A DNA stretch of 64,000 bases, from IMG/VR virus record IMGVR_UViG_2651869821_000001. One strand, given 5' to 3'. The notes under the pieces were generated by a model that worked only from the letters and a program-made list of their open reading frames with translations, was not told where the DNA came from and did no database searches. The position numbers and the translations under genes are program-made. Source of the stretch: a virus (taxonomy: Duplodnaviria > Heunggongvirae > Uroviricota > Caudoviricetes). This document shows positions 4,170-45,479 of the stretch, in pieces (within the stretch, counting starts at the first letter, position 1; each line of letters begins with the position of its first letter).

Positions 4170-4223
4170 CCTGCTTCCGTATATTAAATAATAAATAACT
4201 TATTAAATATATACGGAAGCAGG
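4170..4223. repeat. 54-bp AT-rich palindrome, copy 1 (identical copy at 52046..52099)
   Basis: CCTGCTTCCGTATATTAAATAATAAATAACTTATTAAATATATACGGAAGCAGG; 16-bp perfect arms extendable to about 27 bp with one mismatch. Confidence 0.85.
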
Positions 4224-11357: not shown

Positions 11358-12070
11358 GTATTTACTTATTTTTGTTATATGTATAAGATTGCTTTGTTTT
11401 CGTTAGTACGCGACTGTTTGAACGTTTAAAGATAACTGCAAACGACAATCAGTATCTGGCAGTAGCCTAATAAGCCAAACACCAGCGAGGTCAGTTTCCA
11501 GCCTCGTCACCGAAATGGGACACACTGAGCGAGTGTGATTGCAGAACGCAGGAGAGGGCATGCATGGCACGACACCACTCATGCATGCCCTCTTCGATGA
11601 AGTAACAGGATGGGCGGTTGGTTTCCTCATTCCATTCACCCATCCCGGTTTCAGTTATCGACCGCCCATCCTGTTACGTCATTTCCATTACTTATGTCGT
11701 TTAATCTGGGTTAAAGCGGCGACGTAACCCGGCTGGCGTGGTTAGCCAGCACACAACGTTGAGACCACTGTTTTCTTTCAATCATACAGTGAAATCCACA
11801 GAGGCTGTAAGACTGACAAGGTTGTAATTGGGTAAAACTAATCGGTTAAGTGGTCTCAACGTTGTGGTTAATACCTTCAGGTGTAGCAAATTATGTGATG
11901 CCACAACATGGATGATTCCATATATCCAATAAGATCTAAACATCTGGCGCCTATCAACCGCCGAGTAGTCTTTAAGATCTTCGCTCTATTTGAGCAAGCC
12001 GCAAGCCTCGTCTGGCACTAACGTAAAGTGCAAGTTGCGGGAAAACTTCGGATTCCGAAGCTAGTACCGC

Positions 12071-12145
12071 TGCGAAATTGATGGTGTAGCTCAGTGGTAG
12101 AGCGGTTGACTGTTAATCAACTGGTCGGTGGTTCGAATCCACCCA
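12071..12145 (+). tRNA. tRNA-Asn (anticodon GTT), CCA encoded
   Basis: Hand-folded cloverleaf: acceptor GATGGTG/CATCATC (one G-U), D arm GCTC-AGTGGTA-GAGC, anticodon arm GTTGA-CTGTTAA-TCAAC, T arm GGTGG-TTCGAAT-CCACC, discriminator G, CCA. Confidence 0.85.
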
Positions 12146-12147
12146 TC

Positions 12148-12339
12148 ATCGCCAATGTGCATATGTCTCATAACCTGGAGCAAGGTTTAGCTGGCCAAGC
12201 GACGAAGGGTGAAGCCGGGTGGCTGGATTGAGCGGTTGGGAAGTGAAAGTCTTAATGAAATCTCCCAGAAATATCCGGATGAGTAAGAGAGAAAGTAAAA
12301 AGGATGAGTAATGGAGCAGGTCAGGTTCGAATCCTGGTA
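12148..12339 (+). ncRNA. tRNA-like element: 5' acceptor half and 3' T-arm/acceptor/CCA separated by about 180 nt (interrupted or intron-containing tRNA?)
   Basis: GTGCATA starts 2 nt after tRNA-Asn. 192 nt downstream lies TCAGG-TTCGAAT-CCTGG-TATGCAC-G-CCA, where TATGCAC is the exact complement of the 5' 7-mer. I could not fold a complete cloverleaf in between. Confidence 0.25.
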
Positions 12340-12678
12340 TGCACGCCAACACAACAGGTAATAGCATTCGCTTGTAACGGGATCATAGCCCAATCTACAG
12401 GTTCGCCAAGAATGCTATTACCGTTGTGATGAATTGCAGCTCTTTGAAGCAACCAGAAGATAAGCATCTGGCGTCACAACAAGCTAAATTTTGAGACACA
12501 TCGCTGAACGGTTTGGTTTCTCTTTAATTGAAATGACTCCGCTAACGTCACCCAGACCGTTCAACGCTGTGATAGACATTACAGCAGACGTTATTAACCA
12601 TAGTAGTGCTTCCTAGCATCGTAGCAACACTTTTTCAGCGCAAAATTTAAAGGGGCTTATGCCCCTTTTCTCTTTTAG

Positions 12679-13998
12679 TTAGTTAAAACTGAGCGAATTA
12701 AGATTTGCTTTGTAAGCATCGATCACTCTTTCAACCTCATTCACTATTCTATCAATCCTCTCAGAATGCTGCGGATTAGATTTGAGTTCTAAATATGCTT
12801 TTGATAAAGCATATTTAGACAGACTATATCCTATGTTTTCAGCAAGCATATTGTCAACGCCATTAGTTAGCAATATACCAGTCTGTCTGGTATCGAAAGA
12901 ATGTTTATAGTAAAGCTTAATAAGCCTTTTCAGATGTTTTTCATCCTTGATTGCTCTCTCGTCTAAACCAGTTATTTTAAGTTTCCAGCCAATAACACGA
13001 TGCAACGAAGATTCAAACTTAGCCACTTCCTCGGCTGCTTTTTCCATGTTCAATTCTATGCTGTTTCTCATGTATAGAGGTAATTTATTGAATATTTCCA
13101 ATAAATGCTGTTGGCAGGGGTTGTTATAGGTCCATAGAACTGCGAATGTAACCCTTTGGTGTCGGTTTAACACATTGGTATTAGGGGGCTCGCGACCACG
13201 AACCATTTCATCAACATAAAACTCTACGCCTCTTCGATATTCTTTGTTAAATATCTCACTGACATATGAATCTAAGAAATGAACTTTTGATATTGCATCT
13301 TCAAAAAAAAGCTCACTTTCAAAAAAGTTATATTTGTTTAGTAGGTTGTAAAGTTTCTTTGCGTCATAAGTTTTGTTATTATCGATATTAAGGCCAAAAA
13401 TGGCAATTAGCAGGCTTACTTTTGGGCTAATGCTGTTGCGCAACTGTTCTATGTAAGATCTCTTTTCACTATCAGCCGATGACGGCAGATAGAAGTCTTT
13501 ATCTAAATAGTTTAGTATTAGGATAATATGGTTAATATACTTTATATAAACAGGATTTTTTGTTGTGTAGTAATACATCCTTTTGATCGTATTAATCTCT
13601 AATTTAACATCATCAAACTGAGTGTCAGTTAATAAGGTCTTATTCACATCATCAAGCAATTTATTATGCTGTTCAAGTAATATGCCGTACCATTCTTTAA
13701 AAGAGGCTTTTTTCATTTCAAGAAGCGAAGCCGATGTCAGTTGAGTGGCCTTCATCGCAGCCTTTGCGCTATTCCTTGCTTCGTAAGCAGCCCAAGCAGT
13801 AGCTAAAGTGCCAAGCGTACCTATAACCTCTACGTTTTCCTTAACGACATCCCAGAAAATAGTCATCACTGTCCCAAGTATGAGGATTAATAAAACAGGC
13901 ATTTTATAAGTGTCTTTGGTTAATTTTGGAACTGAATGATACCTAATCGACCATATCATTTCAGCTAGTTTAAAGCTGTCTCGACGAATCTGGCGCAC
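12679..13998 (-). CDS. Hypothetical membrane-anchored protein encoded by an AT-rich opposite-strand insert (moron); candidate exclusion/abortive-infection-type function
   Basis: 439-aa minus-strand ORF visibly much more AT-rich than its neighbours (by eye). One TM (PVLLILILGTVMTIFWDVV) after about 30 residues, remainder alpha-helical and K/N/Y-rich. Followed by hairpin GGGGCTTATGCCCC. Confidence 0.6.
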   Translation of the reverse strand: MRQIRRDSFKLAEMIWSIRYHSVPKLTKDTYKMPVLLILILGTVMTIFWDVVKENVEVIGTLGTLATAWAAYEARNSAKAAMKATQLTSASLLEMKKASFKEWYGILLEQHNKLLDDVNKTLLTDTQFDDVKLEINTIKRMYYYTTKNPVYIKYINHIILILNYLDKDFYLPSSADSEKRSYIEQLRNSISPKVSLLIAIFGLNIDNNKTYDAKKLYNLLNKYNFFESELFFEDAISKVHFLDSYVSEIFNKEYRRGVEFYVDEMVRGREPPNTNVLNRHQRVTFAVLWTYNNPCQQHLLEIFNKLPLYMRNSIELNMEKAAEEVAKFESSLHRVIGWKLKITGLDERAIKDEKHLKRLIKLYYKHSFDTRQTGILLTNGVDNMLAENIGYSLSKYALSKAYLELKSNPQHSERIDRIVNEVERVIDAYKANLNSLSFN

Positions 13999-44336: not shown

Positions 44337-45479
44337 ATGAGCTATTCTACTTTCCGTTTGGGCGCCAACGACGCAACGAAAGAACCTATGTTCCTAGGCC
44401 AGTCCGTAAACGTAGCACGTTACGACCAGCAAAAGTACCGCGACTTTGAAAAGCTAATCGAGAAGCAACTTTCTTTCTTCTGGCGTCCGGAAGAAGTTGA
44501 CATAACTACCGATCGCATTGACTTCAACACGAAGCTACAAGAGCATGAGCGCCATATTTTTCTGAGCAATTTGCGTTATCAGACACTTCTTGATTCTGTT
44601 CAAGGACGCAGCCCTAATGCGACTTTGCTTCCGCTTATTTCTATCCCGGAGCTGGAAACATGGGTGGAGACCTGGTCTTTCTCCGAAACCATCCATAGCC
44701 GCAGCTATACACATATTATCCGCGGTATGGTTGATGATCCGAGCATTGTGTTCGACGGGATCGTTACTGACGAAGAGATTATCAGCCGAGCAATCAGTAT
44801 CTCCAGTGAATACGATAAACTGTATGAGATGACCTGCGCCCGCCAGTACGTTGGCGAAGATGAGTTTGAGCGTCTCTATGCATCCGAATTTGACGGTAAA
44901 CCCTACTCTCTCCAGCGCCAATTGTTCCGCACGCTGGTTTCCATAAATGCTCTGGAAGCGATCCGCTTTTATGTGAGCTTTGCGTGTACATTTGCTTTTG
45001 GTGAGCGGAAACTGCTGGAAGGCAATACAAAAATTATGCGTTTCATTGCGCGTGATGAGGCGCTGCACTGTGAAGGTACTGAGCGCATGATTCGCTTTAT
45101 GCGCACTGGTCGGGAAGGTCTGATATGGAAGCAAATTGCCATTGAAGAAGAAGGCTTCGTGTATCAGACAATGAAGGACGTCGCGGAGCAGGAAATGCGT
45201 TGGGCCGACTATCTTTTTAAAAACGGTTCCATGATCGGCTTAAACGCAGAAATCCTCAAAAGCTATGTAAAATACCGAACTAATCTGGCCATGCGCCGGC
45301 TTGGACTTATGCCATTTTTCCCAGAAATAAAAGACGATCCACTGGTATGGATGAACAAATGGCTGTTGTCCGATACTTTGCAGATCGCTCCACAGGAGGC
45401 AGAACAAAGCACCTATCTCGTTGGTCAGATTGACTCTACTGTTGATCGAGACACTCTAAGCCATTTCGCAGACCTTTAA
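44337..45479 (+). CDS. nrdB: Ribonucleoside-diphosphate reductase beta subunit
   Basis: Near-collinear with my recollection of E. coli NrdB over the whole length ([34 protein letters not shown]..), including iron ligands and the tyrosyl-radical region. Confidence 0.9.

Follow-up and report, generated by a model that had tools for sequence, protein, structure and literature searches.

The long inverted repeats at positions 11358–12678 of the 64,000-nt viral sequence IMGVR_UViG_2651869821_000001, hereafter the window, are RNA helices of the plus strand, maintained by compensatory change. On balance, the block that contains them appears to be a single rightward operon of non-coding RNA and transfer RNA (tRNA), running from a promoter-like site to a terminator at 12649–12668 (Table 1). 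At its 5' end is an RNA, here called the tag RNA, with a reading frame for a peptide like the degradation tag of transfer-messenger RNA (tmRNA). The window is itself a Salmonella SSU5-like phage-plasmid, since the block has 99.4% identity to plasmid pFSIS12033266-1 (CP119474) of Salmonella Newport and, as far as the tRNA, about 83% identity to Salmonella phage SSU5. By analogy, the block would behave as a tRNA operon with structured RNAs built in, and the nearest in kind would be the ban-operon leader of P1 and the leader of the lambdoid late operon, which is rich in small RNAs (sRNAs).

The sequence TTTACT-17 nt-TAAGAT is likely to be the promoter, judged by its conservation and position. It is almost invariant across 19 SSU5-like relatives, agrees with the sigma-70 consensus at 8 of 12 positions, and was missed by a simple promoter scan. 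At the other end, 12649–12668 has the GC-rich stem and U tract of an intrinsic terminator and is the sole one found in the block by a terminator scan; there is no U tract after any of hairpins B to F. The terminator hairpin GGGGCTTATGCCCC was also seen in an earlier reading of the window (the original prediction), which placed it at 12648–12661; its true position is 12652–12665. The 3' segment that ends with the terminator is kept in Salmonella, Cronobacter, Citrobacter, and Cyrano relatives.

Table 1. Features of the block, with their positions in the window
Feature	Positions	Strand	Description
Promoter-like site	11361–11389	+	TTTACT (11361–11366), 17-nt spacer, TAAGAT (11384–11389)
Tag RNA	11396–11559	+	Conserved 5' GUUUUCG..GCGACU, tag frame, two pseudoknots
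Tag frame	11438–11473	+	GCA AAC GAC AAT CAG TAT CTG GCA GTA GCC TAA TAA = ANDNQYLAVA-stop-stop; start codon absent
Pseudoknot PKa	11485–11516	+	GCGAGG (11485–11490)/CCUCGU (11502–11507); loop GUUUC (11494–11498)/GAAAU (11512–11516)
Pseudoknot PKb	11521–11549	+	CACAC (11521–11525)/GUGUG (11533–11537); loop GCG (11529–11531)/CGC (11547–11549)
Hairpin B	11551–11595	+	Inverted repeat I4; AGAGGGCATGCATG 11553–11566 pairs with 11580–11593, 14 bp perfect
Hairpin C	11597–11682	+	Inverted repeat I1; 22-bp stem with one mismatch, 42-nt loop
Two smaller hairpins	11692–11750	+	RNAalifold consensus: 11692–11701/11718–11727; 11732–11737/11745–11750
Hairpin D	11752–11866	+	Inverted repeat I2; CACAACGUUGAGACCACU ... 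AGUGGUCUCAACGUUGUG, variable 79-nt loop
Element D'	11861–11907	+	GUUGUGG ... CCACAAC closing stem; RNAalifold columns 526–539 with 582–595 in relatives
tRNA-Asn (GTT)	12080–12154	+	ARAGORN; Rfam tRNA 75.5 bits
192-nt tRNA-like element	12157–12348	+	Acceptor GUGCAUA/UAUGCAC, T arm CAGG-UUCGAAU-CCUG, G-CCA end, about 115-nt insert
Hairpin E	12350–12428	+	CACAAC-A-GGUAAUAGCAUUC ... GAAUGCUAUUACC-GUUGUG, bulged A; loop holds GUAACGGGAUCAUAGCCCAAUCUAC
Element E'	12423–12483	+	Small cloverleaf-like RNA: stem GUUGUGAUG/CGUCACAAC around two hairpins
Hairpin F	12497–12571	+	Imperfect; CACAUCGCUGAACGGUUUGG ... CCAGACCGUUCAACGCUGUG; loop motif GACUCCGC
Conserved 3' segment	12572–12676	+	Closes with bidirectional intrinsic terminator, stem 12649–12668 and U tract

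Inverted repeats as plus-strand RNA helices

Perfect inverted repeats with arms of at least 12 bp and a loop of up to 120 nt occur 13 times in the window, and four of these, including the two longest (17 and 18 bp), are within the block. In 1000 dinucleotide shuffles of the block the mean number of such repeats was 0.007 and the arms were never longer than 14 bp. The z-scores for RNA folding, again versus shuffles, are −8.9 for the region upstream of the tRNA (11380–12079) and −3.0 for 12155–12670, with −2.9 for element E' and −5.5 for hairpin E and E' jointly.

Every stem named in the original prediction is present, with small corrections to the coordinates. For hairpin B the stem is as described, and the letters of the 3' arm, given as CCATGCATG..., are actually CTCATGCATGCCCTCTTC. 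The core of hairpin C is a perfect 17 bp pairing of GTAACAGGATGGGCGGT (11602–11618) with 11661–11677, and the arms of hairpin D (CACAACGTTGAGACCACT, 11752–11769, with 11849–11866) are perfect over 18 bp. The stem of hairpin E, in which CACAAC-A-GGTAATAGCATTC (12350–12369) pairs with 12410–12428 leaving one A bulged, had been reported at 12341–12417, which is about 10 nt too low. In hairpin F the arms (12497–12516 and 12552–12571) have 3 mismatches.

The pairing was assessed in an alignment, spanning promoter to tRNA, of 19 non-redundant SSU5-like sequences against a structure of 105 pairs in 13 helices made with RNAalifold and checked by hand, using as the control the same structure with pairing partners slid by 1–3 columns. 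In the structure 98.7% of the cells are paired, compared to 33–48% with the slid partners, and 17 pairs are altered on both sides, compared to 1–4. An alignment of related elements in search of compensatory changes had been put forward with the original prediction, and it is these 17 double-sided changes that it has yielded. In hairpin B (helix 4), 5 of 11 pairs differ on both sides among the relatives, while hairpin C (helix 5) has a series from G-C through G-U to A-U at two pairs, which is also seen in hairpin D. There are 3 compensatory pairs in hairpin D (helix 8), 2 in element D' (helix 9), and one in the smaller hairpins at 11692–11750 (helices 6 and 7), where 100% of the cells are paired. 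Hairpin F has a compensatory change in relatives from GAGCGG/CCGCUC to GAACGG/CCGUUC. Over all cells there are 228 that are G-U or U-G and 20 that are A-C or C-A; therefore the pairing works on the plus strand only, which would mean that it is a property of RNA and not of a DNA cruciform or origin.

This asymmetry bears directly on whether the block is instead a DNA-level element, such as a replication origin, a cruciform, a single-strand initiation site, or a recombinase site beside replication genes. The repeats are indeed long and perfect, the block is just downstream of the primase and ligase genes, and a tyrosine integrase, annotated as the site-specific integrase of the phage-plasmid, is about 3.5 kb away. 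However, the excess of G-T over A-C appositions, the presence of the same modules at places that are not origins, namely the Q-dependent late messenger RNA (mRNA) leader of HK620 and lambda and the leader of the ban operon in P1, and the absence from the sequence of any visible iterons or AT-rich unwinding element make this explanation very improbable. The 'origin-like cruciform' of the original prediction is thus disfavoured, since G-U pairs function only on the plus strand, and its view that the block holds one or more structured RNAs, not just terminators, is supported by the covariation and the strand asymmetry. Its further suggestion of a regulatory RNA or of processing sites for the tRNA transcript is plausible.

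Other kinds of repeated element were considered and rejected. For a miniature inverted-repeat transposable element, or other transposable palindrome, there is no extra copy of an arm in the window at up to 3 mismatches and no flanking target-site duplication. Integron attC sites have the core-site consensus RYYYAAC / GTTRRRY, from which ACACAAC and GTTGTGA/G each depart, and the nearby integrase is annotated as that of the phage-plasmid and not as one of an integron. The supporting features of a mimic of CRISPR (clustered regularly interspaced short palindromic repeats) repeats, of a retron, and of a type III antitoxin are absent from the block.

A tag reading frame followed by two pseudoknots

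The tag frame and pseudoknots at 11396–11559, like the stem families common to P1, lambda, and HK620, were overlooked in the original prediction. Attention was drawn to 11438–11473 by weak Rfam matches to permuted and beta tmRNA. For tmRNA_permuted (RF04321, gathering score 47) these are of 20.9 bits in the window, 33.4 bits in the 70-kb phage contig L233, and 25.2 bits in the 157-kb phage L350, and for beta_tmRNA 15.8 bits against a gathering score of 84. For comparison, the SsrA tag of E. coli reads ANDENYALAA, the tag at the equivalent position in the P1 ban operon leader ANDDLMMVAA, and that of phage Cyrano ANEEVYLAVA.

A loose initial DNA pattern retrieved mainly unrelated tmRNA-like sequences from the environment, and the family search was anchored solely on the upstream GUUUUCG and GCAAACGA. 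In all 246 of the family members there are exactly ten codons followed by a stop, encoding 19 peptides in 35 nucleotide variants. Third codon positions are the most variable within the frame, with the final Ala codon taking all four GCN codons, and of 23 variant pairs with a single-base difference, 15 are synonymous (23% expected, p = 2e-5), compared to 2 of 22 and 6 of 23 in the other two frames. Because the synonymous excess is in the tag frame only, together with the third-position variation, the substitution pattern shows that the peptide sequence is under selection.

The tag frame is not a conventional gene. In 210 of the 246 members it runs from the closest upstream stop, which is 4–34 codons before the tag in most instances, to the GCA without an ATG, GTG, or TTG. 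A conventional open reading frame (ORF) over the tag is ruled out by the absence of a start codon and by indels of 1–2 nt directly upstream, which disrupt any extended frame, and the alternative +1 frame (AUG/GUG/CUG-CAA-ACG...) by its 2 synonymous changes in 22. In the sequences as read by eye, the GCA is preceded by a mostly conserved U (−5) and A (−4), and these resemble the SmpB-dependent frame-setting signal of tmRNA.

Directly 3' of the tag are two H-type pseudoknots, both of which covary. Stem 2 of PKa takes the forms CCAG:CUGG, CCGA:UCGG, CCAA:UUGG, and GUCG:CGAC across the family, and GUUUC:GAAAU in the window; all 4 of its 4 pairs alter on both sides with 97.9% of cells paired, and stem 1 also covaries. 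Stem 2 of PKb is 4 to 8 bp in relatives and complementary throughout (for example CCCUGA:UCAGGG and GGCGGGAG:CUCCCGCC). A covariance model, R1, trained only on the lambdoid, P22-like, P1, and 157-kb phage members, with the SSU5-like sequences excluded, matches 11426–11559 of the window at 69.4 bits (E about 2e-14); it has no match in phage lambda.

The core module of the tag RNA is present in 692 of 50,697 phage records, the carriers including HK620, Klebsiella siphophages, Kuttervirus-like 157-kb phages, Felixounavirus, podophages of about 70 kb, a Vibrio phage, and P1. In these records it is annotated as 'none' or 'hypothetical protein' and never as RNA. It heads the tRNA array in P1, SSU5-like elements, several lambdoid phages, and the 157-kb phages, and in HK620 it is within the Q-dependent late leader. 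No description of it was found in Rfam 15 or in the searchable literature, most subscription journals lying outside the latter; neither the tmRNA-like tag in phages, nor the dicF/tRNA leader of P1, nor the exact sequences brought up anything relevant there. The tag RNA is therefore apparently a widespread phage RNA family that has so far gone undescribed.

Comparison with tmRNA and proposed decoding of the tag

The tag RNA has in common with tmRNA a ten-codon frame that lacks a start codon, opens at a GCA 'resume' codon, and encodes A-N-(D/E)-x-x-(Y/F/M)-...-A-A/V-A, a hydrophobic end, before the stops. The resume context (U −5/A −4) is mostly present and H-type pseudoknots come directly after the tag. 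It differs in having no recognised tRNA-like domain or long P2 helix leading to one, in being embedded in phage leader or tRNA-operon transcripts, and in a tag that ends LAVA, MVAA, or LMAA rather than ALAA. Because the tRNA-like domain, the fourth defining feature, fails, the tag RNA is not filed as a tmRNA; it would be a variant that is either derived from tmRNA or convergent with it.

There are only two T-loop motifs in the window, one in tRNA-Asn and the other in the 192-nt element, which has an acceptor G3-C70. HK620, L233, and others have acceptor-like stems close to the tag RNA, none of which is conserved or has G3-U70, and the CCA end is not conserved either; the stem in HK620 is UGUGGUG/CACCACA, followed by G-CCA. 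A tRNA-like domain was sought in five ways, and nothing conserved across the family came from any of them: the T-loop scan, the genes flanking the tag RNA in L233, the HK620 stem, the cargo of the upstream hairpin, and the sequence 3' of PKb. In L233 (11041–11740) the tag RNA is flanked by a chain of odd tRNA-like genes, with an Ala/Sec-like cloverleaf upstream and others that have an acceptor, a T arm, and an ACCA end, the anticodon arm being missing or greatly expanded.

It is tentatively proposed, as a possibility held at somewhat less than even confidence, that many enterobacterial phages and phage-plasmids (P1, HK620, Felix O1-like, Kuttervirus-like, and SSU5-like) encode a tmRNA-derived template that is decoded and whose tRNA-like domain is lost or located elsewhere. 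Decoding would be by a non-canonical route, either a hijacked SmpB-dependent trans-translation of the host or start-codon-independent entry. Use of the tag RNA as a template in trans-translation with host SmpB would be favoured, because the tags are closely like host tags and U(−5) and A(−4) are mostly conserved. The tRNA-like acceptor for the tag RNA would then be supplied in trans or be still unrecognised, and the products of stalled ribosomes would gain a phage-specified tail, ending in ...LAVA or ...MVAA in place of ...ALAA.

Several points weigh against this proposal and against the operon as delimited here. The covariation in the SSU5-like set comes from few independent lineages, essentially two main clades, so that the number of events is modest, and stem 2 of PKb in the window is just 3 bp and is assigned by analogy. 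The promoter-like site is below consensus, and there may be read-through into the block from the upstream genes. No tRNA-like domain in cis (an acceptor with G3-U70, a T arm, and CCA) was found, neither the window nor the 30+ related loci yielded an ARAGORN tmRNA call, and scores for the Rfam tmRNA families were below gathering in the window and its relatives alike. Complementarity between the tag RNA and host tmRNA is no better than with shuffles, and HK620 has the tag RNA and no tRNA gene in the sequence examined. No route is known by which a free-standing template enters the ribosome during trans-translation.

The main alternative to trans-translation is start-codon-independent internal entry, in which the upstream fold would set the GCA in the A site, in the manner of an internal ribosome entry site (IRES), and the tag would be translated without a tRNA-like domain as a free ten-residue SsrA-like peptide that competes for SspB or ClpXP. 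There are precedents in the intergenic region IRESs of dicistroviruses, where initiation at an alanine codon is driven by a pseudoknot and which can work on bacterial ribosomes. A frame under peptide-level selection yet without a start codon or tRNA-like domain, with a conserved structured 5' element directly upstream, is what such entry would call for. However, no covariation support was obtained for the upstream pseudoknot (PK1), a free decapeptide would be short-lived, and the bases at −5 and −4 resemble the SmpB-dependent signal of tmRNA; internal entry is considered quite improbable.

If the proposed decoding is correct, infection would rewrite the degradation tag on the products of stalled ribosomes, or flood the cell with an SsrA-like peptide, and phages would interfere with ribosome rescue and tag-directed proteolysis in a manner testable in standard strains. 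Should the tag frame truly be decoded, it would be the first tmRNA-style tagging template with no tRNA-like domain of its own. Its carriers would include long-established model phages (P1, HK620, and relatives of Felix O1) as well as phage-plasmids that occur in several percent of the E. coli, Salmonella, and Klebsiella sequenced.

Tags such as ANDSQFALAA, ANDEQFALAA, and ANDEKFALAA are present on about 100 viral contigs from the environment (L093–L207, many of them in IMG/VR), in the order tag, short conserved helix (ACACUGCUUAGGGUUUCGGUAGG...), and protein genes. They resemble truncated tmRNAs, or the coding parts of tmRNAs made of two pieces, from phages that infect other hosts.

A second RNA family: hairpins with exchangeable loops

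Hairpins D, E, and F start with CACA(A/G/U)C and end with G(U/C)UGUG. The E type has the consensus CACAAC-A-GGUAAGRGCAUU ... RGUGCUCUU(A/U)CC-GUUGUG, in which the bulged A and a G-U pair are conserved. It follows the CCA ends of tRNAs in P1 and SSU5-like elements, is on both sides of the tag RNA in HK620, and is present in lambda straight after tR' (L292 390–463, about 44789–44862 of NC_001416). At least 11 unrelated loop 'cargoes' were found on one E stem type. Some of the E loops are T-arm-like (GGGUUCGAAUCCC or GAGUUCGACUCUC), and that of the window, GGG-AUCAUAG-CCC, resembles an anticodon loop with CAU. The differences between relatives in the stem are compensated, and a D stem type with compensated differences is also present in P1 and Cyrano. 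As these sequence comparisons show, the CACAAC...GUUGUG hairpins make up a second RNA family, represented in P1, lambda, and HK620, in which the stems are conserved and the loops exchangeable. In lambda, orf-64 (L292 222–416; 44621–44815) overlaps the 6S/tR' region and enters the start of the E-type hairpin.

There are copies of CACAAC at 11752, 11902 (CACAACAU), 12350, and 12475 (the last two as CACAACA), and of GUUGUG at 11861 and 12423. The 3' GUUGUG of hairpin D or E can instead pair with a downstream CACAAC, closing element D' or E'. Pairing in D and D' is mutually exclusive, the GUUGUG being common to both, and the D'/E' pairing is preferred by RNAalifold and in the minimum-free-energy fold. 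Element E' is 94–97% identical to P1 over 64–72 nt.

The modules are in the same order in the P1 ban-operon leader, with the tag RNA, a CACAAC hairpin, tRNA-Asn, the tRNA-Thr position, E, E', and a D-type hairpin. That leader differs in having the C1-controlled Pban promoter and a dicF-like RNA upstream, and only about 400 nt from the tag to the tRNA. On the minus strand of P1, plp ('putative lipoprotein') and upl (L003 2894–3463; NC_005856 69472–70041) overlie the plus-strand 3' end of tRNA-Thr, the E hairpin, the E' element, and the D-type hairpin, RNA modules that are kept in unrelated phages. These two ORF calls may be spurious.

Element E' has in miniature the layout of STnc100 (RF02076) and PasD, which are multi-branch RNAs closed by UGGUG...CACCA, with the first hairpin after AAU and the last abutting the 3' strand, and lacks the central domain. 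STnc100 and PasD are prophage base-pairing sRNAs (preprint 10.64898/2026.05.13.724894). In searches of the window and its relatives against Rfam, at gathering scores and at E up to 10, tRNA was the only match apart from STnc100 in one relative; the window itself has no STnc100 match at E up to 10. Covariance-model (Rfam/Infernal) and ARAGORN searches had been proposed as a check on the original prediction; they recover tRNA-Asn and give no Rfam match for other structured RNAs in the window. The STnc100 match is at 2223–2436 of L350, a Kuttervirus-like lytic phage of 157 kb, at 48.7 bits between the tag RNA and the tRNA array. Since this is a true RF02076 match, STnc100, known from prophages, is carried by virulent phages too.

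The hairpins and small cloverleaf elements could be Hfq-type regulatory sRNAs or sponges, with a leader that titrates or mimics GcvB and so alters amino-acid uptake, which would be compatible with a tRNA and tag RNA operon. In lambdoid prophages two Hfq-bound anti-sRNAs, AgvB and AsxR, are encoded 3' of PR', the former blocking GcvB through CACAACA (Tree et al. 2014, PMC4104026). CACAACA is the consensus that the R1 seed of GcvB targets. The CACAAC and CACAACA copies of the window are like this motif, CACAACA also opens the E-type hairpins, the location, in the leader or moron region downstream of PR', is a further likeness between phage small RNAs, and the module of the 157-kb phage that is related to those here is an Rfam STnc100. 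GUUGUGAUG presumably copies part of GcvB R1. However, the CACAAC motifs are mostly base-paired within stems, no Rfam match to AgvB or AsxR, any more than to STnc100, was found in the window at E up to 10, and by eye there is no similarity between the window and the AgvB and AsxR sequences of the paper's supplement, which have a conserved 3' region of about 42 nt (AGUAUCUCAUGC..UUGCCCGAACCCAYUCGGGC). AgvB and AsxR are themselves primary transcripts of 51–60 nt with their own terminator, as sRNAs in convergent pairs, and AsxR is described as antisense to the stx2 transcript. A regulatory sRNA or sponge function is regarded as unlikely, although it is the strongest of the alternatives considered.

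The exchange of loops could alternatively mean that the stems are recombination scars, or 'boundary sequences' for the swapping of cassettes and tRNAs, accompanied by decayed tRNA fragments and with no RNA function. Different loops are indeed found on the same stems, some containing tRNA pieces such as the T arm GGGUUCGAAUCCC and the anticodon-like GGG-AUCAUAG-CCC, the 192-nt element resembles a disrupted tRNA, hybrid elements with the arms of two hairpins exist, and the same modules are at a known lambdoid moron insertion site. Scars would not, however, be expected to keep their pairing by compensatory changes with G-U intermediates on one strand, nor is their absence elsewhere in the window, without target-site duplications, or the conservation of the stems from P1 to lambda to SSU5-like elements, in keeping with this explanation, which is considered improbable. 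In the hybrids, from the P1-like contigs L024 and L027, a D-type 5' arm is joined to an E-type 3' arm at the common loop motif GUAACGGGGUCAUAUCCCAAUCUAC and the hairpin is lost; these show that recombination occurs within the hairpin loops.

If the stems are functional RNA, as the covariation supports, the operon transcript would fold into a chain of conserved helices around tRNA-Asn. The long stems would act as stalks for processing and stability, with RNase III, RNase P, and RNase E cutting or delimiting them, since the stems lie between functional units and are 18–22 bp in length, which is compatible with RNase III processing. Such stalks would divide a single precursor into the tag RNA, tRNA-Asn, and the small RNAs of loop or cloverleaf type, and would also display the small RNA cargo. 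In ribosomal RNA operons and the T7 early RNA, the RNase III stalks are long, near-perfect stems that flank functional RNA in a polycistronic precursor; those of the block differ in carrying a conserved bulged A and the terminal CACAAC/GUUGUG.

Conserved, ornate non-coding RNAs beside tRNA genes are known in phages, as GOLLD, ROOL, and the stable RNAs of the T4 tRNA cluster (species 1 and 2), none of which is known to have a tag reading frame. GOLLD and ROOL differ from the block in hosts and folds, and neither has an Rfam match here. With the tag RNA and the CACAAC...GUUGUG hairpins, two conserved RNA families are defined, neither of which is entered as an RNA feature in the phage and plasmid records examined. 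They would account for several doubtful 'hypothetical protein' ORFs, such as plp and upl of P1 and the coding sequence over 11560–11727, and would connect the lambdoid 'moron' leader, rich in sRNAs, with the tRNA islands found on phage-plasmids.

tRNA-Asn and the 192-nt tRNA-like element

The only tRNA of the block that passes thresholds is tRNA-Asn. The 192-nt element, with a 7-bp acceptor stem and a canonical T arm, is at the position of tRNA-Thr in P1, Cyrano, and other relatives. It is called by ARAGORN only at the 70% threshold, as a tRNA-Ser with a 97-nt intron, and apart from this element the calls made at relaxed thresholds are noise. Its insert of about 115 nt folds no better than shuffles (z = +0.6). 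In the Salmonella plasmid L287 there is a tRNA-Thr in which about 75 nt replace the anticodon arm. Both this and the 192-nt element may be decayed tRNAs or RNAs built on a tRNA scaffold.

Distribution and neighbouring sequences

A 1.4-kb query from the block has matches, to at least part of its length, in 1293 plasmid records. Of 5426 complete E. coli genomes, 683 also have one, nearly always located on a plasmid. Many of the matches in both sets are short and of the P1 type. The SSU5-like plasmids cover about 60% of the query, that is, the stretch up to tRNA-Asn.

There is no conserved ORF within 11358–12678, as the original prediction, which saw no convincing ORF here, had it; the frame of the ORF at 11539–11727 is disrupted in relatives by indels of 11 and about 24 nt. 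In CP119474 the sequence corresponding to 11560–11727 (+) is annotated as a 55-aa hypothetical protein, P1A08_24035, over hairpins B and C. Because those indels break its frame, this is probably not a real gene.

Upstream of the block is the primase/ligase gene cluster. Downstream is a 439-aa ORF on the minus strand (12679–13998), in AT-rich DNA and converging on the operon terminator, followed by a PhoH gene. For the 439-aa ORF neither Pfam nor PADLOC gives a match; since other genes take its place in relatives, its behaviour is that of a moron.

Two further repeats were noted. The sequences at 11865–11885 and 12580–12600 form a long-range inverted repeat of 21 nt, 81% complementary, with the core GGUUAAUA / UAUUAACC, which could bridge element D' and the 3' segment; this pairing is probably due to chance, because the 5' partner is not kept in relatives. 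Elsewhere in the window a perfect inverted repeat of 15 bp, CCTGCTTCCGTATAT, with a 24-nt loop occurs twice, at 4170–4223 and at 52046–52099, 47.9 kb apart, which suggests a duplicated regulatory hairpin or repeat.

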